A stretch of 64,000 nucleotides of DNA, taken from positions 16,563-80,562 of the forward strand of contig URGL01000002.1 in NCBI GenBank assembly GCA_900547405.1. The letters run 5' to 3'. The stretch is from an uncultured Eubacteriales bacterium. GTDB taxonomy: Bacteria > Bacillota > Clostridia > Oscillospirales > Oscillospiraceae. Shown piece by piece: positions 8,394 through 64,000 of the stretch. Both the position numbers and the translations under genes were made by a program. Under the pieces are notes generated by a model. The model did no database searches, was not told the origin of the DNA, and worked only from the letters and a program-made list of their open reading frames with translations. Numbering within the stretch: the stretch's first letter is position 1; every line of letters starts with the position of its first letter.

Positions 8394-8501
8394 GCATATA
8401 CGCTTGTCTTCGGGGTGCCGGCTCACCGGCTGAGATAGGGATATAGTCCCTGACCCGTCAAACCTGATACGGTTCGTACCGTCGTAGGGAAAGATGCGTC
8501 A
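8394..8501 (+). ncRNA. TPP (THI-box) riboswitch aptamer
   Basis: P1 acgcat/atgcgt; GGGGUGCC...CUGAGA...ACCCG..AACCUGAUACGGUUCGUACCGUCGUAGGGAAAG matches the TPP riboswitch consensus; ThiT gene downstream. Confidence 0.85.
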
Positions 8502-8514
8502 AAGAATTTTATGT

Positions 8515-9149: not shown

Positions 9150-9188
9150 CCCCCGGAGGCTTTTGGAGCCTCCGGGGGATATTTTTTA
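9150..9188 (+). terminator. intrinsic terminator of thiT
   Basis: cccccggaggc-ttttg-gagcctccggggg perfect hairpin followed by atatttttt. Confidence 0.8.
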
Positions 9189-9312
9189 CCCTCTCCTTAC
9201 GAGAGGGCGGACCGGCGAAGCCGGGACGGGTGTGGGGCGGGACCAGGTCGGACCATGTACCACCCCTCATCCGCCGCCGCGGCGGCACCTTCCCCCAGGG
9301 GAAGGTAAGGAC
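9189..9312. repeat. multi-hairpin intergenic repeat element, copy A
   Basis: Five consecutive stem-loops (ccctctcc/gagaggg; gaccggcgaagccggg; ggggcgg...ccgcccc; ccgccgccgcggcgg; ccttcccccaggggaagg). Collinear with copy B at 19483-19620. Confidence 0.5.
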
Positions 9313-9695
9313 TATTCCTTCCAAACCGCTCCCAGCTGCCCGTTCCGCTCCTCCAAAAAGGCATCCTTGATTCTCTGGATGTAAGAAAAGGGCTCCTCCG
9401 GGTAGATGGGGGCGAATTTTGTCCCTTTGCTTTCGTGGCTGGGCTTCAGGGAAAACAGGAGCTTCCCTTCTCCGATGGATTTCACCGGACGGCGGGTGGT
9501 CAGGCAGAAGGAGTCTCCTTCCGGCACCAGAACGCCTAAATCACTTTGCCTGTCCCCGCATGATACCTGCAGCCGCCATACCGTATCCCCCGACAGGCCG
9601 CAGCGGCAGGTAACCACATAGTAGAGCCCCTGTCTCTGCACCTGGACCCGGCCCACGGTCCGCTCCCCGAGCCGCACATCCCGTTCGATCCGCAT
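9312..9695 (-). CDS. hypothetical protein
   Basis: 127 aa ORF with coding-like composition; no recognisable family. Stop codon abuts repeat copy A. Confidence 0.35.
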   Translation of the reverse strand: MRIERDVRLGERTVGRVQVQRQGLYYVVTCRCGLSGDTVWRLQVSCGDRQSDLGVLVPEGDSFCLTTRRPVKSIGEGKLLFSLKPSHESKGTKFAPIYPEEPFSYIQRIKDAFLEERNGQLGAVWKE

Positions 9696-19464: not shown

Positions 19465-19482
19465 AAACTTTACCTCCTATTT

Positions 19483-19620
19483 GATACCCTCTCCTGGGAG
19501 AGGGTGACCCGGCGAAGCCGGGTCGGGTGTGGGGCGGCACGCAGAACCAACCTGGTTCCGCCCCTCATCCACCGCCAGGGCGGTCCCCCTTCCCCCCAAG
19601 GGAAGGTTTTGGATTTACAG
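19483..19620. repeat. multi-hairpin intergenic repeat element, copy B
   Basis: Same five-hairpin order as copy A with shared cores GGCGAAGCCGGG, CGGGTGTGGGGCGG, CCCCTCATCC, CCGCC..GGCGG, CCCCC.GGGAAGG. Confidence 0.5.
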
Positions 19621-19860
19621 CCGCTCCCCGTCCTTGGGTTCGGCGGGCAGTCCGCTGGATATTTCCAGATTGCCGTTGCGGCAGCGCATGGCATCCAGCA
19701 GCTGTTTTTCCTTTGCGGCCTCCTTCAGTCGGACCTGGTATTCCAGGCTGTAGGCAAAGGCCAGCAGGGCCCCCAGACTCAAGGATACCAAAGTTGTAAT
19801 ACAAAAGGCTCCAAAAGTCAAGGAGCTGCCATAAACCGAGGAAAAAATACCGTTAAGCAT
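19615..19860 (-). pseudogene. N-terminal fragment of a small membrane protein (possibly the membrane partner of a VTC-domain gene), truncated by repeat copy B
   Basis: 81 aa with one TM helix; the last ~12 codons and the stop are encoded by repeat element B. Confidence 0.35.
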
Positions 19861-20240
19861 AGCGTCTGTCCTCCCGGATCATTTCTTTTTCCATCTGCTG
19901 ATAAGCTCTGCCGTATTTGGAATAGGACAGAGGGAATATCCCTATATCCGACAGGACCGAGCTTAGCCACAGGGGCATGGCATTGGAGATCTTGATTTCC
20001 ATCAGGGTCTCGCCCTCTTTCAGCAATGGCTCGCCCCAGGCACCCAGCCGCAGGTCTAAGCCTCGAATGCGCCAGAGGATATCCCGGTCCAGGGTCAGCC
20101 GCAGGCCCGGGTCCTCCAGTCCCCGGAAGGAATCCCGCTCATAGCTGACGAACATGGCCGGGGACAAATCGCCATAGGCAAAAAGGATCCAGTCCAGCTC
20201 CCGGAAAATCTGCCCCTCACCGCCGGGGATACTGCCATCT
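19853..20240 (-). pseudogene. VTC-domain protein remnant (C-terminal ~130 aa only)
   Basis: FVSYERDSFRG...RLTLDRDI...LMEIKISNAMPLW...SKYGRA resembles the C-terminal part of bacterial VTC (CYTH-like) proteins. The frame stays open upstream to ~20240 with no start and meets an opposite-strand gene fragment. Confidence 0.45.
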
Positions 20241-20556
20241 TCAGCGGATTGCCGCCAGCCTGATGGAAAACGCCATCAAATACGAGCCCAGGGGCGGCCA
20301 AGTCCTGGTAACCCTTACCCGTTCCCGCCGTCACGCAATTCTGGAGGTCCGCAACCGAAGCACCCGTATCTCTCAGGAGGACCTGCCCCATATCTTCGAC
20401 CGGTTCTACCGCAGCGACAAAAGCCGCCAGTCAAAAACCGGCGGCCACGGGTTGGGTTTGGCAATTACGAAGGAAATGGTCACAAAGCTGGGAGGCACCA
20501 TCCAGGCTGGCAGCGGGGAGGATGGCACCGCATTCACCGTAAAGCTCCCGCTATAA
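20240..20556 (+). pseudogene. histidine kinase C-terminal (HATPase_c) remnant
   Basis: LQRIAASLMENAIKYEPRGGQVLVTL...DRFYRSDKSRQSKTGGHGLGLAITKEMVTKLGGTI are the N/G1/G2 boxes of an HK ATPase domain. No DHp/His box or sensor upstream; abrupt junction near 20240. Confidence 0.5.
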
Positions 20557-20589
20557 ACCCTCTCCCGGGAGAGGGTGGCAGGTCTGGAA

Positions 20590-21618
20590 TTATCTTCCCA
20601 GTGCCCAGCGGAATCTTGACCGAAGCAGCAGCTCATTGAGGAGCGTCAGCACCAATAAAATGAGTGCCAGTTCCAGACTCTTCTCCCCCAGCATGGCGAG
20701 CCGGTTGGGGAAGTTCTCCATGGGTATCCCCAGCTTCGGGAAATAGACATAAATAGCCGTGATCACCGGGGTCTGGTGCCAGACAAAGTAGATCAGACTG
20801 TTCCGGCCCAGATAGCGGATGGGCTTCGCTGTTATCCACTGAGAGGCAAGGAGCACCGCTCCGATGCCGCAGAAGGCCCCGAAGTAGCTCCACAGGGGGC
20901 TGCCATACTGATTCTTGAATACGTCCATGCCGGCAGTCATTCCCTTCACCACCGTGAAGGCAACGGCCAGGTTTCCGGCGGTCAGCAGCCCGAGGGCAAT
21001 AGGTCTGGTTTTTCCACTTTGGAGCCAGGACAGGGTCTTCGGGCTGTCTTTCAGCAGATATCCCCCAATAAAAAAGGGCATGACCCCAAAGCAGGCATCC
21101 AGGTTCCAGGGCAGCACAGGCAGCCCCGCCTTTGCGTAAAGAATGCCCACAGCCCCCATAGCGGCTGCCGTCAGCGCCAGAGGTACCGGCTTTTTGACCA
21201 GCCGAAGCAGCCAGTAAGCCAGAATTTCCAGCAGGAACAGGCAAGCCAGAAACCAGATGGGCCACAGCCGCCGCTGGACCAACACTCCCAGGCTCATCTC
21301 CCCCACCCGTTCCCAAAAGTCTGCCGAACTCCCGGCCAGAGCCGCCTCCGCCGGGATGATGGGCAGGGCCAGCGCGAAATAGGGCAGCAGCAGTTTTTGA
21401 AGCTTCCCTTTCCAAAAGTCCACCCAGGGCCGGTCCGCCCGAAAAAGGAACCCGGACAGGAAGAAAAACAGCGGCACATGGAAGGTATAAAGCCACCGGG
21501 AAATCGGGTGCCCGGTCATCACATGGGAGAGGATGATTGCCAGCATCCCCCAGCCCTTGGCCGTATCCACCCAGGTGACTCTTTTCCCTCTTTCCATATA
21601 CCCAGCCTCCAGCTTCAT
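20590..21618 (-). CDS. acyltransferase family 3 (OatA/OafA-like membrane O-acyltransferase)
   Basis: ~340 aa, ~10 TM helices, conserved N-terminal WVDTAKG...H...FFF(L)SGF motif of acyl_transf_3. Confidence 0.75.
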   Translation of the reverse strand: MKLEAGYMERGKRVTWVDTAKGWGMLAIILSHVMTGHPISRWLYTFHVPLFFFLSGFLFRADRPWVDFWKGKLQKLLLPYFALALPIIPAEAALAGSSADFWERVGEMSLGVLVQRRLWPIWFLACLFLLEILAYWLLRLVKKPVPLALTAAAMGAVGILYAKAGLPVLPWNLDACFGVMPFFIGGYLLKDSPKTLSWLQSGKTRPIALGLLTAGNLAVAFTVVKGMTAGMDVFKNQYGSPLWSYFGAFCGIGAVLLASQWITAKPIRYLGRNSLIYFVWHQTPVITAIYVYFPKLGIPMENFPNRLAMLGEKSLELALILLVLTLLNELLLRSRFRWALGR

Positions 21619-24367: not shown

Positions 24368-24486
24368 GCGAACAGAGTAGGAGACCCTGCGTGAAGTGCT
24401 GTCAAGATGGGGAGTTGTGTGACAGACGAAGGACTTGTGTCCGCGATGGGATCTCCGCACCCGCTGCGCCATAATCGAGGGTCTGC
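24368..24486 (+). ncRNA. THF (tetrahydrofolate) riboswitch
   Basis: cAGAGUAGGagaccCuGCGUgAAGUG...GGGGA...CGAAGGA...CCGCGAUGGGAUcUCCGC...CGCCAUAAU matches the THF-I riboswitch consensus; precedes a folate-type ECF S-component. Confidence 0.75.
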
Positions 24487-39389: not shown

Positions 39390-40424
39390 TCATTTCTCCG
39401 CCAGCCGCTGCCGGATGTAGCCCAGGGAGGCGATGGTATCGATGGTCTCCTGCAAATTTAAGCGGCGGGTGTTGTTGGAGTTGAACTCCGTCAGGGTGTT
39501 CCGCTTGTCGTCGCCCTCTTTGAAGTACTTATCGTAGTTCAGCCCCCGGTTGTCGGCGGGGACCCGGTAGAAGTCCCCCATGTCGATGGCCTTGGCGCAC
39601 TCCTCGTTGGTGAGGAGGGTCTCGTACATCTTCTCGCCGTGGCGGATGCCGATGACCTTGATCTCCTCTTTCTTGCCGCCGAAGAGCTCGCAGACGGCTT
39701 CCGCCTGGGTCCGGATGGTGCAGGCGGGGGCCTTCTTGATGAGCAGGTCGCCGTTCTCGCCGTGCTCAAAGGCGAAGAGCACCAGGTCCACGGCCTCTTC
39801 CAGGGACATGATGAACCGGGTCATGTTGGGCTCGGTGACGGTGATGGGATTGCCGGATCTGATCTGGTCGATCCACAGGGGGATGACGGAGCCCCGGGAG
39901 CACATGACGTTGCCGTAGCGGGTGCAGCAGATCTTCGTCTTGCCGGACATTCTGGATTTGGCAATGGCCACCTTTTCCTCAATGGCCTTGGACATGCCCA
40001 TGGCGTTGATGGGGTAGGCGGCCTTGTCGGTGGACAGGCAGATGACGCACTCCACCCCGGCCTCGATGGCGGCGGTGAGGACATTGTCCGTGCCGATGAC
40101 GTTGGTCCGCACGGCTTCCATGGGGAAGAACTCGCAGGAGGGCACCTGCTTCAGGGCGGCGGCGTGGAAGATATAGTCCACCCCGGTCATGGCCCCCCGG
40201 ACGGATTGCAGGTCCCGGACGTCGCCAATGTAAAACTTGATTTTGTTCGCCACCTCCGGCATTCTGGCCTGGTACTCGTGGCGCATGTCGTCCTGCTTCT
40301 TCTCATCCCGGGAGAAGATGCGGATCTCGCCAATGTCCGTGGCCAGGAAGCGGTTTAAAACGGCGTTACCGAAGGAGCCGGTACCGCCGGTGATCATCAG
40401 GGTTTTGTTTTTAAAAAGAGACAT
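39390..40424 (-). CDS. fnlA: Cap5E/WbjB/FnlA-like UDP-GlcNAc 4,6-dehydratase/5,3-epimerase (CapD-like SDR)
   Basis: 344 aa from MSLFKNKTLMITGGTGSFGN (GGAGGA SD). Its RBS and first 19 codons lie inside the 75 bp direct repeat. Confidence 0.85.
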   Translation of the reverse strand: MSLFKNKTLMITGGTGSFGNAVLNRFLATDIGEIRIFSRDEKKQDDMRHEYQARMPEVANKIKFYIGDVRDLQSVRGAMTGVDYIFHAAALKQVPSCEFFPMEAVRTNVIGTDNVLTAAIEAGVECVICLSTDKAAYPINAMGMSKAIEEKVAIAKSRMSGKTKICCTRYGNVMCSRGSVIPLWIDQIRSGNPITVTEPNMTRFIMSLEEAVDLVLFAFEHGENGDLLIKKAPACTIRTQAEAVCELFGGKKEEIKVIGIRHGEKMYETLLTNEECAKAIDMGDFYRVPADNRGLNYDKYFKEGDDKRNTLTEFNSNNTRRLNLQETIDTIASLGYIRQRLAEK

Positions 40425-40440
40425 GATGTGTCCTCCATTC
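40366..40440. repeat. 75 bp direct repeat, copy 1 (RBS plus 5' end of fnlA), flanking the Abi cassette
   Basis: ttaccgaaggagccggtaccgccggtgatcatcagggttttgtttttaaaaagagacatgatgtgtcctccattc is identical to 41693-41767. Confidence 0.9.
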
Positions 40441-41654: not shown

Positions 41655-41694
41655 CGCCCCAGCAGTTCATTTCAGACTGCTGGGGCGGTTTTTA
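41655..41694 (+). terminator. intrinsic terminator of the Abi cassette
   Basis: ccgccccagcag-ttcatttcagac-tgctggggcgg then ttttt. Confidence 0.75.
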
Positions 41695-41767
41695 CCGAAG
41701 GAGCCGGTACCGCCGGTGATCATCAGGGTTTTGTTTTTAAAAAGAGACATGATGTGTCCTCCATTCT
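41693..41767. repeat. 75 bp direct repeat, copy 2 (orphaned RBS plus 19 codons of fnlA, reading into cassette end)
   Basis: Identical 75-mer; encodes MSLFKNKTLMITGGTGSFG then out-of-context KNRPSSLK-stop. Confidence 0.9.
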
Positions 41768-44521: not shown

Positions 44522-45649
44522 TCACAGGCTTAATGCTTTTTTCAGAAATATAACCCCTTTGCCTCGCTCAATACTCAGTATTTTCTGAGCGGATTCTGTG
44601 TCGTATTTTCTGTCCGCTATAGTAAAATCCTGGTAATTCCGCAAGAGCCTATCTTGCGTACCAGTAAGATCTAGGATGCTTTCTATTCTCGTGCCAAAGC
44701 GCGGTGGCATAATAACTGTAAACATCTTTTCCAAATTTAAAGAAAATGCAGTGGCATGGAACGAGTCTGTCAAAATATGCTCTGCATTGACAAAATATCC
44801 TAAAAAATCTTCCACAGACGGGCTCAACGCACAAAATCCAGCTTTTTTTCTTGCAGAACGGCTATAGCCAATTCGAATAATATCCCAATGATTACGTGCT
44901 GCAAGCTCTTCAGCATAATCGTCCATCTGTGTATTTTTATTTAATTGATAAATCAGCAGATATGGTTGACGCTTTTTTTCATGAAATGTAGCAAGTTCTT
45001 TCCACTGATTTCCATCCAGCATTAGTGTAGGGTCCAATATCAGTTCCGAAGAAATACCAATCTCAGAAAGTTGCTTCACAGCGCTTGCCTCTCTCATTGA
45101 AATGGCAGAGTATTTTTTCAGCAGCCTCTGCATTTCCGGAATCTCACTCTGAATTAGCTCATCCATGCCTATACTGGCCGCAAAAGCAATTCTCTTTTTT
45201 CCTTCCGGCGCAAAGGCAAGATAGAGCGGATAATCAACTCCTTCATTCCAAATACTATTCCACACCTGATCACTGCCAGTCACATAAACATCTGCCTTTG
45301 GCGGATTGTTTTGAAGTTCTTCAAAAGAATGATAGGCTTGCGGTGTCAGCGTGATATATTTCTCTAGAAATCTTCGCGTTGGGGCTTTATAGAGCTTTAC
45401 GTATTCTTCCAGCAACAAGACCATCATTTTCTCTGTTGCAGCTGTGCATCCCCATATCGGTTGCAGTCTTTTTAATGTACTACTTTTCAGCAACGCTTCT
45501 GCTTGTCTCTTCGGTGTCTGATTTGCTCTCCAATAATCCACGAATTCGACCTCGCAGCCAAGATATTCTAACGTTTTCTTTGTTGCATATGTTTGCAAAA
45601 CCGATCCATAGTTATTGACATTAAGTAATGTTATAACGCTTACTTTCAT
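44522..45649 (-). CDS. polysaccharide pyruvyl transferase (CsaB/WcaK/EpsO family)
   Basis: KVSVITLLNVNNYGSVLQTYAT N-terminus and DSFH motif typical of PS_pyruv_trans. Confidence 0.8.
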   Translation of the reverse strand: MKVSVITLLNVNNYGSVLQTYATKKTLEYLGCEVEFVDYWRANQTPKRQAEALLKSSTLKRLQPIWGCTAATEKMMVLLLEEYVKLYKAPTRRFLEKYITLTPQAYHSFEELQNNPPKADVYVTGSDQVWNSIWNEGVDYPLYLAFAPEGKKRIAFAASIGMDELIQSEIPEMQRLLKKYSAISMREASAVKQLSEIGISSELILDPTLMLDGNQWKELATFHEKKRQPYLLIYQLNKNTQMDDYAEELAARNHWDIIRIGYSRSARKKAGFCALSPSVEDFLGYFVNAEHILTDSFHATAFSLNLEKMFTVIMPPRFGTRIESILDLTGTQDRLLRNYQDFTIADRKYDTESAQKILSIERGKGVIFLKKALSL

Positions 45650-45662
45650 AATTTCTCCCAAA

Positions 45663-46898
45663 CTACCTATTCAAGCATTTTTTAGCGATATTCTTCCATC
45701 TTCTTGGAATCCAGTCCCATGCTTGATACAGATAGTACTTCATGCCCAGGTGTTTCCAATACCATTCATTAACAGCAGCGTACCCGTTCTTGCAATACAA
45801 TTCCATAACTGCCTCTCTACTCTCATGCCGTTTGGTTGGGTGGTTCAGCTGACCATTTCTCTTTGCCGCAGCCTCGTAGGTGGAATCCAACAGTATCATG
45901 TTTTCTCGGCATGTTTCTAAGAAACTCTGCCCCTTTTCTGTGTTAACTAAGATACAAGAAATCCCCTTTTCAGCATTCAGCAATCCTTTTTGCAGATACT
46001 CGGGATGCATCTCTTCAATGCCCCAAAAGTCACCAATAGTTAAATCGCTGAATCTTTGTCCGCCTGCATACTTGCAAGAGTAACAGCTATCTCGGTATGT
46101 CGCACCCTTCAAAAACAACCAGTAGTAGGAAGACTGTCTTGCATACAGAAACCTACTGATTTTCTTTTGGTCTGAAACTCTGCAATGCTCTGCAAGCACA
46201 AAACTTCCCCAACCGTCTTTTTTGTTCCTGAACTCAACATCACAGATGCGCATGCCCAGCTTCTTCTCTTCTTCCGCAATATAATCCCGAAACAGCTTTT
46301 CCCCTGGCACACCATGGCAGATAATGTCTACTGTGATTAGATTGTCATACTGCTTTCTGCCCAGGAATCCATTTAATCCATCCACCTGGCAAGGAGTCCC
46401 GGAAAACAAAACCTTTCTTCCGGTGTTCAGTTGCTTTAAAACTTCGCGATAACACAATACCATGTCACTTTTAACATACTTTGATCCCTGAATTTTTTTC
46501 AGTTCAGATAGATTCTCTACCATAATATGGCAGGTTTGGATTCCTGTCTTATCCGTAAATTCAGTGGCGCAGCCAAATACTACGCCGGATTGCCCCAATA
46601 TCTTAGTTGCAAGAGCTGCAAATGCACCACCTGATGAGGAAATTTGCAGGATCATATCCTCTTTCGCTGCCGCAGCATATACCTTTATCGGAGTTTGCCC
46701 AACCATATCCTTTTTATAGCTACAAGCACTGATACACTTCCCACACCGAACGCAAAGATTCTCTTCAATCTCCGGAAAAACATTGCCATAGCTGTCTTCC
46801 TTCATAGAAATTGCATTTCGGGGGCAGCTGTTTAAACACGCCCCACATCCACAGCAATCTTCTTTTCCATGAAACAGAACAATTTCTCGTTTTACCAT
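45663..46898 (-). CDS. 4Fe-4S ferredoxin plus coenzyme F420 hydrogenase/dehydrogenase beta-subunit-like protein
   Basis: N-terminal CxxCxxC...CP and CxxCxxC...C clusters, then FrhB/FdhB-like N and C domains; commonly paired with pyruvyl transferases in glycan loci. Confidence 0.75.
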   Translation of the reverse strand: MVKREIVLFHGKEDCCGCGACLNSCPRNAISMKEDSYGNVFPEIEENLCVRCGKCISACSYKKDMVGQTPIKVYAAAAKEDMILQISSSGGAFAALATKILGQSGVVFGCATEFTDKTGIQTCHIMVENLSELKKIQGSKYVKSDMVLCYREVLKQLNTGRKVLFSGTPCQVDGLNGFLGRKQYDNLITVDIICHGVPGEKLFRDYIAEEEKKLGMRICDVEFRNKKDGWGSFVLAEHCRVSDQKKISRFLYARQSSYYWLFLKGATYRDSCYSCKYAGGQRFSDLTIGDFWGIEEMHPEYLQKGLLNAEKGISCILVNTEKGQSFLETCRENMILLDSTYEAAAKRNGQLNHPTKRHESREAVMELYCKNGYAAVNEWYWKHLGMKYYLYQAWDWIPRRWKNIAKKCLNR

Positions 46899-46915
46899 AG
46901 AATAAATCTCCTAAT

Positions 46916-48040
46916 TTAGCTTTCCACTGCTTGCTTCAGAAATATAATACCTTTGTTTCTTTCCAGATCTAGAATCTCGTTGACCCGCTTTTTATCGATT
47001 TTTGTATCTATAACAGACAAATCCCGATAGTCCCGAAGCAAGCGATGATTTGTATCCGTTAAACGTAGAATACTCTCAATTCTCGTACCGAAACGAGGAG
47101 GGAGAATACTGATAAAATCCGTTCCCAGGTTTAGAGAAAATGCAGTTGCGTGAAAAGAATCTGTCAGGACGCACTGTGCATTTTCTATATATCCCAACAG
47201 CTTTTCAACACTTGGGCTGACAACGCACTTACCATATGGCTGTTTTTGGGGAAGCGAAAACCCAATGCGGATGATGTGCCACTGCTTCTTCTTGGCCAAT
47301 CTAACAGCATAGTCATCCATATCTCGATTTTCATTAAGCTGATAAATCAGCAAATAGGGCTTGCTTTCTACAGGCCGTTTTGCAATTGCGATCCACTGTT
47401 CTCTATTCAGCATAAGCGTAGGATCAAGAATCAACTGCGCAGGAATACCATATTGAGCCAGCAGTGTTACTGCGCTTTCTTCTCGAACAGAAATGGCATG
47501 ATATTTTTTCAAAAGCGATACTGTTTCCTCTACCTCTTCTGGGAAGAATTCTGTGCGGCCGATACTGGCAGAAAATGCAATTCGTTTTTTCCCGGGAGGC
47601 GCGTAATCAAGGAAGTAAGGACGCTCAATTCCATGGTTCCAGACACTGTTCCACACCTGGTCACTGCCTGTCATGTAGACATCGCCATCCGGAACATCGA
47701 GCAGCAAATCCTCCATGGAATAGTATGGGTGTGGTGTGAGCTTTACTCGTCTATGTATGAACTCTCGCATCGGCTTTCGCTTCCGATAGAGCATATAGCG
47801 AAGAGGGATACGTATCAAGGACTCTGTGAAACTGTTTAATCCCCAAATACGCTTGTATTTTTGCATTTGAGGGCTTTGCAAAGCCTTATCCACCGCACCT
47901 TCACCGCAGTTATCGTGTCTCCAATAATCCACTATTTCTACATCATAGCCCAATTCAGATAAAACTTGTTGTGTTGCGTAGGTCTGCAGAGCAGATCCAT
48001 AATTGTTTACTGTGTGCAATGTTATGACGCTGATTTTCAT
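46916..48040 (-). CDS. polysaccharide pyruvyl transferase (paralog)
   Basis: MKISVITLHTVNNYGSALQTYAT...DSFHATAFSLNLG; paralogous to 44522-45649. Confidence 0.8.
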   Translation of the reverse strand: MKISVITLHTVNNYGSALQTYATQQVLSELGYDVEIVDYWRHDNCGEGAVDKALQSPQMQKYKRIWGLNSFTESLIRIPLRYMLYRKRKPMREFIHRRVKLTPHPYYSMEDLLLDVPDGDVYMTGSDQVWNSVWNHGIERPYFLDYAPPGKKRIAFSASIGRTEFFPEEVEETVSLLKKYHAISVREESAVTLLAQYGIPAQLILDPTLMLNREQWIAIAKRPVESKPYLLIYQLNENRDMDDYAVRLAKKKQWHIIRIGFSLPQKQPYGKCVVSPSVEKLLGYIENAQCVLTDSFHATAFSLNLGTDFISILPPRFGTRIESILRLTDTNHRLLRDYRDLSVIDTKIDKKRVNEILDLERNKGIIFLKQAVES

Positions 48041-48078
48041 AAGTTCTCCTAATTTGGTATACCATCACCTATAGGCTC

Positions 48079-57626: not shown

Positions 57627-57709
57627 GCGGGCATGGTGGAATTGGTAGACTCGGTGGATTTAGGTTCCACTGCGCAAGCGTGCAGGTTCGAGTCCTGTTG
57701 CCCGCACCA
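57627..57709 (+). tRNA. tRNA-Leu (anticodon TAG), CCA encoded
   Basis: 7 bp acceptor stem gcgggca/tgcccgc, anticodon arm gtgga-tttaggt-tccac with TAG at 34-36, long variable arm, T-arm gttcgagtc, 3' CCA. Confidence 0.9.
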
Positions 57710-57838: not shown

Positions 57839-58024
57839 CCCCCCGCTTTCGGTTCCCGGAAGCGGGGGGCCAGCTTGTCAAAAAACTACCCAAATTCCCT
57901 CATTTGTGATTGATATGTACCCCCAATACTGGACACCCAGTATTGGGGGTACATATCAGAAAGCAGGGGGTCTTTGACAGACTGACAGCCTGCCGTGACG
58001 CGCGTCACGGCAGGCTGTTTGTTT
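57839..58024. repeat. cluster of three perfect palindromes/hairpins downstream of tRNA-Leu
   Basis: 10 bp stem ccccccgctt/aagcgggggg (57839-57869); 20 bp perfect inverted repeat atatgtacccccaatactgg-acac-ccagtattgggggtacatat (57913-57956); 16 bp palindrome cagcctgccgtgacgc|gcgtcacggcaggctg then tttgttt (57986-58024). Confidence 0.6.
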
Positions 58025-62308: not shown

Positions 62309-64000
62309 TTACTTAGTCAGAACGGATACGCCGGTGTCGGTGACGGCGCCGCCCAGATTTTCACCGTTCAGAGCGGCAACAGCAGCCTTCACGCCCTCAG
62401 CGCCCATAACGTCGGGGTTCTGAGCCATGGTAGCCAGGATGTAGCCGTCAGCAATCAGGCCCAGGATGGCATCGGACTTGTCAAAGCCCACGCAGATCAC
62501 ATCGGAACCGGAGGCCTTCACAGCGTTGCCCGCGCCGTTGGTGGAGCCTTCGTTGCAGCCGAAGATGCCCACAACGCCCTGGGTAATGTAATTCTCGGCA
62601 ATACCCTGGGATTTGGCAGCGTCGCCTTCACCGTACTGGGTCTCCAGCAGCTCGAAGCCGGTGCCCTCGAAGGCGGAGCGGAAGCCGCTTTCACGGGCCA
62701 CACAGGAGGCGGTGGCGGCGTTGACGTTGACGATGCCGATCTTACCGGAAGTGACACCCTTCTCGGTCAGGGCATCCAGCATGGTCTCACCGGCAGTCTT
62801 ACCGGCGGCGGTGTTGTCGGTGGAGAAGGTGGCCTCACCGGGCACGTTGGCGGGAGAGTCCACATAGACGATCTTCACACCGGCGGCTTCCGCTTCCTTC
62901 AGGGCGGAGGAAATGGCATCGGGGCCGTTGGCGGCCACGATGATGGCCTTGCAGCCGGAGGCTACCGCATTGTTGACCTGCTCAATCTGCTGGGCATCGT
63001 CCTTGGTGTTGGGGGCCATGAAGACCAGCTCCACACCCAGCTCCTTGGCGACCTTCTCAGCACCCTCCTTCAAGGTGATCCAGTGCTGGTCGATGGAGTC
63101 CATGGTAATCAGTGCAATCTTGTAGTCACCGGCGGGCTTGACATCACCGGTGGGTGCAGCGGAAGAGGAAGCTTTCAGGACAGAGACACCAGTATCGGTA
63201 ACGGCGCCGCCCAGATTCTCGCCCTTCAAGGCGGCAACGGCAGCCTTCACGCCTTCGTAGCCCATGACATCGGGGTTCTGGGCCATGGTGGCCAGGATGT
63301 AACCGTCGTCGATCAGGCCCAGGATGGCATCGGACTTATCGAAGCCCACGCAGACAACATCCGCACCGGCTGCCTTCACAGCGTTGCCAGCACCATTGGT
63401 GGAGCCTTCGTTGCAACCGAAGATGCCCACAACGCCCTGGGTGATGTAGTTCTCGGCAATGCCCTGGGACTTGGCGGCATCGCCTTCGCCGTACTGGGTC
63501 TCCAGCAGCTCGAAGCCGGTGCCCTCGAAGGCGGAGCGGAAGCCGCTTTCACGGGCCACACAGGAGGCGGTGGCGGCGTTGACGTTGACGATGCCGATCT
63601 TACCGGAAGTGACACCCTTCTCGGTCAGGGCATCCAGCATGGTCTCACCGGCAGTCTTACCGGCGGCGGTGTTGTCGGTGGAGAAGGTGGCCTCACCGGG
63701 GACGTTGGCGGGAGAGTCCACATAGATGATCTTCACACCGGCGGCTTCCGCTTCCTTCAGGGCGGAAGAGATGGCGTCGGGGCCGTTGGCGGCCACGATG
63801 ATGGCCTTGTTGCCGGCAGAGACGGCGTTGTTGACCTGTTCGATCTGCAGAGCGTCGTCCTTGGTGTTGGGGGCCATGAAGGTCAGGTCTACGCCCAGCT
63901 CGGCGGCGGCCTTCTCAGCGCCCTCTTTCAGGGTGATCCAGTGCTGGTCAATGGAGTCCATGGTGATCAGTGCGACTTTGTAGGTTTCGCTGGAGTTTGC
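62309..64000 (-). CDS. sugar ABC-transporter substrate-binding protein (RbsB-like type I PBP) built from at least two tandem near-identical PBP modules; 5' end beyond window
   Basis: Two ~286 aa modules (period ~858 bp), each a complete periplasmic-binding-protein-like sequence, joined by an SSSAAPTGDVKPAGDYKIALIT linker. A third linker-like sequence (ETYKVALIT) runs into the window edge. Confidence 0.75.
   Translation of the reverse strand, partial: ANSSETYKVALITMDSIDQHWITLKEGAEKAAAELGVDLTFMAPNTKDDALQIEQVNNAVSAGNKAIIVAANGPDAISSALKEAEAAGVKIIYVDSPANVPGEATFSTDNTAAGKTAGETMLDALTEKGVTSGKIGIVNVNAATASCVARESGFRSAFEGTGFELLETQYGEGDAAKSQGIAENYITQGVVGIFGCNEGSTNGAGNAVKAAGADVVCVGFDKSDAILGLIDDGYILATMAQNPDVMGYEGVKAAVAALKGENLGGAVTDTGVSVLKASSSAAPTGDVKPAGDYKIALITMDSIDQHWITLKEGAEKVAKELGVELVFMAPNTKDDAQQIEQVNNAVASGCKAIIVAANGPDAISSALKEAEAAGVKIVYVDSPANVPGEATFSTDNTAAGKTAGETMLDALTEKGVTSGKIGIVNVNAATASCVARESGFRSAFEGTGFELLETQYGEGDAAKSQGIAENYITQGVVGIFGCNEGSTNGAGNAVKASGSDVICVGFDKSDAILGLIADGYILATMAQNPDVMGAEGVKAAVAALNGENLGGAVTDTGVSVLTK

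Follow-up and report, generated by a model that had tools for sequence, protein, structure and literature searches.

BoxC/PIT repeats and CGTC-tagged repetitive extragenic palindromes (REPs) are abundant in many bacteria, and for thirty years both have been without a known function or means of spreading. The first of these families was reportedly the subject of earlier work by Bachellier and by Hoyne and Maher. Its motif (BoxC/PIT/TMECO), 5'-CCCTCNCCC N3-6 GGGNGAGGG N3 GGGNGAGGG-3', was found in 3610 copies across 262 proteobacterial genomes and has been reported only there; the copies are always intergenic, show no strand bias and occupy hypervariable loci with complete or partial deletions, and their inverted pairs always join two unlike types (Holder et al. 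2015, PMC4666352). Isolated E. coli strands (34-36-mers) fold into a purine-motif intrastrand triplex according to circular dichroism (CD) and nuclear magnetic resonance (NMR), the latter of which excluded G-quadruplex folding of the E. coli motif; such a triplex cannot form in RNA, the repeats have no transposon link, and PIT elements show neither promoter nor terminator activity (PMC4666352). CGTC-tagged REPs are mostly Alphaproteobacterial, form head-to-head dimers and lack a dedicated transposase (Di Nocera et al. 2013, PMC3733652); the described members have 8-9-bp stems starting with A/T pairs and 4-5-nt loops, and no Firmicutes examples were reported. Here we describe a five-hairpin repeat that occurs as two full copies (elements A and B) and one internally deleted remnant in a 64,000-nt stretch (hereafter the window) of contig URGL01000002.1, from an uncultured bacterium of the family Oscillospiraceae. 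Judged by sequence comparison, this repeat is in all probability a previously unreported BoxC/PIT-type variant in a Firmicute host. The kind of repeat is already known; what is new is the extension of the family to the Bacillota and the architecture of its arms.

Arm architecture and comparison with known repeats

Elements A and B align over their full length in the same orientation (75% identity over 122 aligned positions) and share a 29-nt core, CCGGCGAAGCCGGGNCGGGTGTGGGGCGG, which occurs exactly twice in the window against zero expected (100 shuffles). Both adopt an identical five-hairpin fold on either strand, as single-stranded DNA (ssDNA) or as RNA (z = -3.1 to -5.1 versus shuffled sequences), so that the same ordered hairpins and cores noted in an initial annotation of this DNA were recovered in both copies. 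Apart from A and B, an exhaustive model scan of the window detected a single fragment, at 20556-20589. The first hairpin, which the annotation had described as recurring alone, is seen there (20556-20582), and the partial copy exists; it is not a lone hairpin but an element that has lost about 92 nt of its interior and kept both ends. Element B is likewise a real copy, whose limits were corrected from 19483-19620 to 19487-19614 by the empty-site alleles described below.

The five hairpins were shown to be two inverted arms of about 50 nt, arranged head-to-head around a variable loop. From 5' to 3', each arm begins with hairpin a, in which a loop of 3-5 nt separates a pyrimidine strand from a purine strand; there follow a TGG linker, hairpin b (5-7 GC pairs of free stem sequence with a GNA triloop, GAA/GCA/AAA), a GAC linker and a G-rich 10-mer, segment c. 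Two arm flavours were distinguished, F1 (a = CCCTCTCC/GGAGAGGG, c = GGGTGTGGGG) and F2 (a = CCTTCCCC/GGGGAAGG, c = GGATGAGGGG); hairpin a of element B is CCCTCTCC-TGG-GAGAGGG, read as GGGAGAGGG. A typical element of about 120-130 nt has an F1 arm at the left, a 20-nt loop, an inverted F2 arm at the right and a short tail, and all inverted pairs listed but two (L034:5651 and L048:10009; comparison sequences are cited by their L numbers) combine F1 with F2. The long central stem is formed by c of one arm and c' of the other, always with a G-T and a T-T mismatch, and segment c of element A doubles as the 5' side of this stem. The ends are asymmetric, with 0 nt outside hairpin a at the left and an 8-nt tail at the right.

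Non-orthologous copies have a mean identity of 84% (arms 87-89%, central loop 65%), and a covariance model of the arm detected 145 arms in 425 kb. Across 136 distinct arms, 94.6% of the hairpin b cells are paired, and double changes occur at all six of its pairs; none of 500 shuffles reached the same covariation score, and sliding the partner column collapsed the signal. Covariation of the stems across copies, proposed earlier as a check on the family, was thus borne out for hairpin b. The raw b stems, each found with its complement, include CCGGC, CACGGC, CAGGGC, CACGCC, CTCGGC and CAGGGCC, and other copies carry variant stems at the b' position (GGCC..GGCC and CTCGGC-GAA-GCCGAG). In hairpin a, C-G to T-A exchanges distinguish the flavours, and orthologous B loci differ in the loop-proximal helix, which is AACCA/TGGTT in some and AACCG/CGGTT in others. 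The GCGAAGC core is a classic example of a hyper-stable DNA mini-hairpin.

Segment c mirrors the purine strand of hairpin a. Over 130 distinct arms, the mirror register gave 6.51 of 7 compatible triads and 72 arms were perfect, compared with 4.65 of 7 in the direct register and 5.48 of 7 in the best alternative. An A of the purine strand is matched by either A or T in c, and the flavours co-vary accordingly (GAGAGGG with GGGTG(A/T)GGG, GAGAAGG with GGATGAGGG, and GGGAGGG with GGGTGGGGG); the GGGTGTGGGG segment of A and B yields 7-8 perfect triads (G*G-C, T*A-T). A Watson-Crick duplex between c and the pyrimidine strand of hairpin a was ruled out, as the F2 flavour does not allow it.

We then compared this plan with the BoxC/PIT/TMECO motif. 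Elements A and B both have the first loop of 3-6 nt between a pyrimidine stem (CCCTCNCCC) and a purine stem (GGGNGAGGG), followed by a third strand (GGGNGAGGG) that mirrors the purine stem, with one mismatch in F2 arms. The shared strings CCCTCTCC(C), GGGAGAGGG and GGGTG(A/T)GGGG are close to those of E. coli, 26 of 27 stem positions in F1 agree with E. coli copy no. 2, and when the hrpB-mrcB pair of E. coli is aligned directly with A, B and Alphaproteobacterial copies, one common plan emerges. The architecture and near-identical stems also occur in Methylosinus, Azospirillum and soil contigs. The two groups further share intergenic location, absence of a strict strand bias, frequent inverted pairs of unlike type, hypervariable loci and the lack of an associated transposase. 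They differ in the second loop, which is exactly 3 nt (TTA or CCG) in the described motif but 20-23 nt in the window copies, where about 21 nt (TGG-b-GAC) hold the covarying hairpin; some Alphaproteobacterial arms, such as the right arm in Azospirillum, keep the 3-nt loop, and many have about 21 nt with hairpin b. Further differences are a T where the E. coli third strand has A (giving a T*A-T triad), the second flavour (CCTTCCCC/GGGGAAGG) and conserved 3' tail, the host, here a Bacillota gut anaerobe, and a documented presence/absence allele without a scar.

The insert in the second loop itself recalls the CGTC-tagged REPs. The complement of hairpin b with its linkers reads CGTC-[stem-loop-stem]-CCA, that is, the tag and tail of that super-family, and TGG-b-GACG was found in most of 57 distinct arms, B having TGA...GTCG. 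Head-to-head dimers, abundance in Alphaproteobacteria and the lack of a dedicated transposase are also common to both. However, the stem of hairpin b comprises 5-7 GC pairs and its GNA loop is 3 nt long, CGAC replaces CGTC in copy B, and the unit is nested in a triplex motif. Because stem length, initial A/T pairs and loop size all depart from the published description, hairpin b resembles CGTC REPs and is not a member, a comparison that draws on the text of PMC3733652 and one genuine CGTC dimer in contig L051. The covarying hairpin nested in a triplex loop links two orphan families, BoxC/PIT and CGTC. Bru-RS and RIME repeats may be further relatives.

Copies in other genomes and alleles among strains

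Scanning 185,579 species-representative genomes for the exact core, a pattern that proved too strict, returned a single Faecousia sp. metagenome-assembled genome (MAG), with two further full copies at unrelated loci. Faecousia belongs to the Oscillospiraceae, phylum Bacillota, and the window organism is a congener of this MAG: both share the pheT-orf127-thiT synteny, and orf127 is 85% identical. A slightly relaxed core matched 61 metagenome contigs, about 20 of low GC content and about 35 high-GC environmental ones. Beyond A and B, full copies occupy at least 12 unrelated loci in the low-GC, Faecousia-like contigs, and the count of copies that had been suggested as a check therefore supports a dispersed family. 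The same contigs also hold solo arms and truncated copies, profile searches of them recovered more diverged copies (e.g., three in the 8-kb L002), and several short-read contigs end inside the repeat. Extrapolating from 3 copies per 64 kb in the window and about 1 per 8 kb in selected contigs, we infer about 100 or more copies per genome. Searches elsewhere gave little: a plasmid BLAST with element A yielded only one weak Xanthomonas match, a degenerate arm pattern had no match in viral contigs, and a literature search on element sequence strings retrieved nothing relevant.

In the roughly 35 high-GC contigs, the left arm reads CC(C/T)CTCCC-loop-GGGAGAGGGTGG-CCGGCGAAGCCGG-G(A/T)C-GGGTG(A/G)GGGG, often followed 25-85 nt later by a mirrored right arm. 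BLAST with the left arm matched Methylosinus, Neorhizobium, Rhizobium and Azospirillum replicons at up to 21 sites per record, none of them annotated. This cross-phylum homology spans about 45 nt that are near-identical between Bacillota and Alphaproteobacteria, the unpaired linkers TGG and GAC included, which argues for a sequence-specific partner or horizontal spread. In Methylosinus trichosporium pOB3b1 (L082 3990-4125, 5555-5575), an IS4-family insertion sequence (IS) lies in the hairpin loop of the right arm, where 9 bp (CCCTTTGGG) are duplicated; the repeat is thus an IS insertion target, as reported for REPs, and the IS4-family transposase beside this copy was ruled out as a mobiliser.

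Several variants of the plan were also seen. Two other Faecousia lineages carry a longer mosaic at the site of element A (L085 1885-2040, L087 1885-2085) with a third arm flavour, GCTCCCCC/GGGGGAGC-TGG-CACGGC GCA GCCGTG-ACT-GAGAGGG, in which the a-b-c plan is unchanged and the purine tract differs. In a sub-family with c = GGGTGTGGAGGGGAC (L002 4000-4190, L045 5961-6143, L048 6636-6820, L001 34-95), the arms flank a 100-nt insert that, read on the other strand, resembles an intrinsic terminator. L002 contains GGGGACAC, which agrees with the GGGGWSAS motif described for inverted repeats flanking some RAYT-like genes. In L061 (2250-2424), a 27-nt left-end fragment precedes a full copy by 19 nt, with a duplicated gene 3' end between them, an arrangement that suggests recombination of the element GAGGGTGGACCGG with a similar gene GAGGTGTACCGG.

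All three window loci are polymorphic among strains whose flanks are 97-100% identical, and the comparison with related strains that had been proposed revealed exact presence or absence at B and deletion alleles at A and the remnant. Element B is present in L073, L076, L077 and L079 and absent from L072, L074, L075 and L078. The empty allele reads CCTCCTATTTGATA^TTACAGCC, with GATA^TTAC at the junction and no duplication, and the filled allele reads GATA[CCCTCTCC...TTGGAT]TTAC; the difference is exactly 128 nt with unambiguous limits, and the site shows neither a target-site duplication nor a flanking direct repeat. The left flanks of 12 non-orthologous copies likewise share no conserved target, only a preference for A.

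Internal deletions recur at the other two loci. At locus A, L007, L008 and L010 lack 9201-9310 (110 nt) and retain ACCCTCTCCTTAC and the last 2-3 nt of the element, while other Faecousia lineages have differently composed elements and no virgin allele was seen; the short allele is therefore an internal deletion. At the site of the remnant, a full 134-nt element is present in L068 (9405-9538) and in L055. Alleles of the same kinds are known for the hrpB-mrcB BoxC pair of E. coli, which is present in 3536 of 5426 complete genomes, missing, for example, in Nissle 1917 and collapsed in strain SJ2D. Such natural filled, empty and collapsed alleles, available from human and animal gut metagenomes, allow target choice, excision and effects on neighbours to be studied without culture, and clean population polymorphisms make the spread of BoxC and CGTC repeats testable.

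Possible routes of spread

The intergenic location, the occurrence in both orientations, the equal folds on both strands and the absence of an Rfam match point to a DNA-level selfish repeat and not to an RNA gene. Overall, we consider it reasonably probable that A, B and the decayed copy are high-copy non-coding palindromic DNA repeats that act at the DNA level, as single strands. On a strand exposed by replication, repair or transcription, each arm would fold into its hairpins; segment c would probably lie in the groove of hairpin a, in a triplex that would tolerate a hairpin in its loop, and the element as a whole could form one long hairpin of the cruciform type. Such folded ssDNA would be the form that is recognised or processed, giving gain and loss as a discrete unit without target-site duplication. 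The most likely mover would be a trans-acting enzyme of single-stranded DNA, its nearest analogues being the HUH/Y1 proteins (RAYT, IS200/IS605), a step that, taken by itself, we hold to be somewhat less likely than not. An excised circle, if formed, would join ...TTTTGGAT|CCCTCTCC..., and the same structures would lead to frequent internal deletions that leave end remnants.

The analogy is suggested by two groups. GTAG REPs and REPINs also form inverted hairpin doublets foldable into one long hairpin, are high-copy and intergenic, decay to singlets, and are expected to move without target duplication through an HUH/Y1 enzyme acting on single strands; the arms here are, however, twice as long and comprise two hairpins and a mirror repeat. 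Membership in the GTAG REPs was ruled out, the GTAG tag being absent from all aligned copies. IS200/IS605 elements and PATEs share with the repeat a lack of classical terminal-inverted-repeat transposase sites, subterminal hairpins, unlike ends and no duplication. Insertion of IS200/IS605 elements occurs 3' of a fixed target of 4-5 nt, which is retained at the left flank, whereas the left flanks here vary (ATA, AGA, AAA, TGA, GGG). An IS608-type target, with insertion after TTAC as suggested by the A allele, was dropped; no fixed target is found at B and the 12 other left flanks, and the A allele is an internal deletion.

Several observations weigh against the overall reading of a mobile repeat acting as single-stranded DNA. 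B is the sole clean empty site, and it is filled in more distant strains (95.6-96.3% flank identity) and empty in closer ones (97.5%), so that the empty allele may reflect excision (exact loss) or recombinational replacement and may not be the ancestral, pre-insertion state. No Y1 transposase was found in the 565 kb examined (tblastn with approximate IS608 TnpA and E. coli RAYT queries, nothing at E<0.4), and the literature names no mobilising gene for BoxC (PMC4666352) or CGTC repeats (PMC3733652). A triplex with a structured second loop of about 21 nt is putative and drawn from the E. coli analogy, Holder et al. did not succeed in demonstrating the triplex in vivo or within duplex DNA (PMC4666352), and Faecousia F2 arms (GGGGAAGG with GGATGAGGGG) contain one mismatched triad. 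The covariation alignment was fitted to the model, with the raw stem list showing the same pattern, and the genome-wide copy number is an extrapolation and not a count.

In a broader version of this reading, the arm, with its triplex-capable mirror repeat and the CGTC/CCA-tagged hairpin in the loop of that repeat, would be the recognition module of a cross-phylum ssDNA mobilisation system. BoxC/PIT repeats and CGTC REPs would then form one super-family that crossed between Proteobacteria and gut Clostridia and is still exactly mobile, with no target duplication, in present Faecousia populations; this version is doubtful.

The main rival is passive spread, in which a structural repeat is copied by template switching, microhomology or recombination and lost by slippage, and its conservation reflects stable folding only; we regard this as somewhat unlikely, though it explains the deletions well. 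The deletion junction of the remnant has AGG microhomology, L041 carries a deletion between GGCGGCAC direct repeats, and the SJ2D BoxC pair is collapsed to one hairpin between two GGGAGAGGG copies. The differently composed elements in three Faecousia lineages at site A are what copy-to-copy exchange predicts, and neither BoxC nor CGTC repeats have a known transposase. Moreover, the thiT terminator loop (9150-9178) is inverted (CTTTTGGAG versus CTCCAAAAG) in all three A-deletion contigs (L007, L008 and L010) and in none of four filled alleles, the signature of a template switch, which could be linked to the A deletion, or the inversion could mark a shared haplotype. In contrast, slippage does not explain B, because the indel limits are unique and equal to the family ends and no direct repeat flanks the site. 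Folding stability alone needs no near-identity over about 45 nt between the two phyla, unpaired linkers included, and some 100 or more copies at unrelated sites need efficient copying.

We also considered a cis-acting RNA element that stabilises mRNA 3' ends, attenuates between cistrons or acts as a translation-termination roadblock after stop codons, roles of a type demonstrated for some E. coli REPs; this seems quite improbable. The folds are stable (-70 to -78 kcal/mol, z about -4), the hairpin stems covary, the F1 end lies 0-9 nt past the stop codon of a gene reading into the element in 10 of 13 informative copies, and REPs at most 15 nt from stop codons have been proposed as translational regulators (PMC12306157). 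However, some copies are antisense to operons (B, L033 and probably L002:7795), both strands fold equally, strains with identical neighbouring genes lack the element, and the sense strand has no adjacent U-tract, the only terminator-like site at B being antisense to the operon. The mirror covariation fits a purine-motif triplex, which is impossible in RNA, and PIT elements are inactive as promoters or terminators (PMC4666352). At the gathering threshold, Rfam matched only THF, TPP and tRNA families in the whole window, and nothing relevant appeared at E<=10, where the best sub-threshold match on A scored 23.5 bits, the cut-off being 52.5. It is therefore unlikely that the element functions primarily as RNA, and the structured-RNA element proposed by the initial annotation is disfavoured by the symmetric, dispensable copies in both orientations; RNA-level side effects beside stop codons are plausible. 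The stop-codon bias is weak (about 0.09, two-sided, by our own estimate) and might stem from selection acting in very short spacers or from a preference for one replication strand.

A conventional miniature inverted-repeat transposable element (MITE), a deletion derivative of a DDE-transposase IS recognised by its terminal inverted repeats, is very improbable: the imperfect inverted arms of about 50 nt, the size, copy number and intergenic location, and co-transcription with neighbours recall Correia/NEMIS, RUP and ERIC elements, but B has no target-site duplication, the ends are asymmetric, no parent IS with these ends was seen, and the lone IS beside a copy, that of Methylosinus, is itself an insertion. 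The earlier description of a REP/MITE-like mobile element thus holds in that the family is multi-copy and intergenic, with covarying stems and polymorphic loci, and fails as regards a classical MITE or a GTAG REP.

Gene context and other features of the window

Coordinates of the copies, their parts and adjacent features are collected in Table 1.

Table 1. Repeat copies, their component parts and neighbouring regulatory features in the window
Feature	Position	Strand	Basis
Element A, full copy (F1 arm, spacer, inverted F2 arm, tail)	9189..9311	+	nhmmer E=1e-36
Element A, arm covariance-model matches	9185-9242; 9258-9309	+; -	arm covariance model
Hairpin a of F1 arm, CCCTCTC-CTTAC-GAGAGGG	9189..9207	+	DNA and RNA folds; stems same as E. 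coli BoxC
Hairpin b, CCGGC-GAA-GCCGG, between (C)GGA and GAC	9212..9224	+	covarying stem
Segment c, GGGTGTGGGG, mirror of purine strand of a, putative third strand	9228..9237	+	mirror-register test
c' of inverted F2 arm, CCACCCCTCATCC, imperfect pairing with c	9260..9272	+	folds; minus-strand arm-model match
Hairpin b' of F2 arm, GCCGCC-GC-GGCGGC	9273..9286	+	folds
Hairpin a' of F2 arm, CCTTCCCC / GGGGAAGG	9288..9305	+	folds
3' tail, TAAGGA	9306..9311	+	family consensus YRGGGRAT (alignment, 16 copies)
Element B, full copy, 128 nt	19487..19614	+	limits set by empty-site alleles
Internally deleted element, 26 nt left end and about 7 nt right end	20556..20589	+	model match 20558-20620, E=0.003
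thiT intrinsic terminator (context, outside element)	9150..9187	+	13-bp stem then T-run
TPP riboswitch, directly upstream of thiT	8401-8507		77 bits

Every copy lies between open reading frames (ORFs), in both orientations relative to genes (neighbours taken from a GC3-filtered ORF table), and other copies follow terminators or lie between convergent genes. Element A follows the thiT terminator and, as noted initially, abuts a stop codon, the TAG of a 127-aa ORF (complement of 9312-9314). No sense-strand terminator was found at B, which lies close upstream of the ribosome-binding site of a lipoprotein gene, as the initial annotation had it (8 nt to CCTCCT at 19473-19478). The claim that B supplies the last 12 or so codons and the stop of a membrane-protein gene is contradicted, as the stop codon (19615-19617) of the 81-aa ORF (19615-19860, minus strand) is outside the insert, the ORF ends 1 nt beyond it, and strains without B encode an identical 81-aa product. 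The ORF is indeed a remnant of a truncated gene, but the cause is the internal, in-frame loss of 429 nt from a 224-aa DUF4956 gene, between ...AFAYS and ...SLYS and far from B; the gene is intact in L020 and L055.

A second deletion, of about 2.1 kb when compared with L055 (6848-8938), took away the VTC N-terminus together with a response regulator and the greater part of a histidine kinase, and its junction is at about 20241-20262 between a VTC remnant (19853-20167) and a HATPase_c remnant (20263-20556); L081 retains a longer VTC gene. Neither this junction nor that of the 429-nt deletion has an element at it, which leaves gene truncation or rearrangement by the repeat, as suggested earlier, unsupported: the window copies are passengers in intergenic spacers beside stop codons and have truncated nothing. 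In L016 (1-2306), chimeric ORFs join a lipoprotein to unrelated sequence and the N-terminus of an ABC ATPase to a DUF4956 C-terminus, through either real rearrangement or mis-assembly beside repeats. In practical terms, repeats of this type break short-read assemblies, create spurious ORFs and mimic terminators or small RNAs.

Other features of the window include a tetrahydrofolate (THF) riboswitch (24371-24468, 81 bits) and a tRNA-Leu(TAG) (57627-57709); about 200 nt beyond the tRNA gene lies a perfect inverted repeat of 22 nt whose halves are 4 nt apart (57911-57958). Three further sets of repeats probably represent paralogous or tandemly duplicated genes: a 75-nt stretch at 40366-40440 and 41692-41766, 100% identical and 1326 nt apart; blocks of 72-78% identity with a spacing of 2391 nt (44911-48052); and a 300-nt block repeated 858 nt apart at 86% identity (62317-63474).

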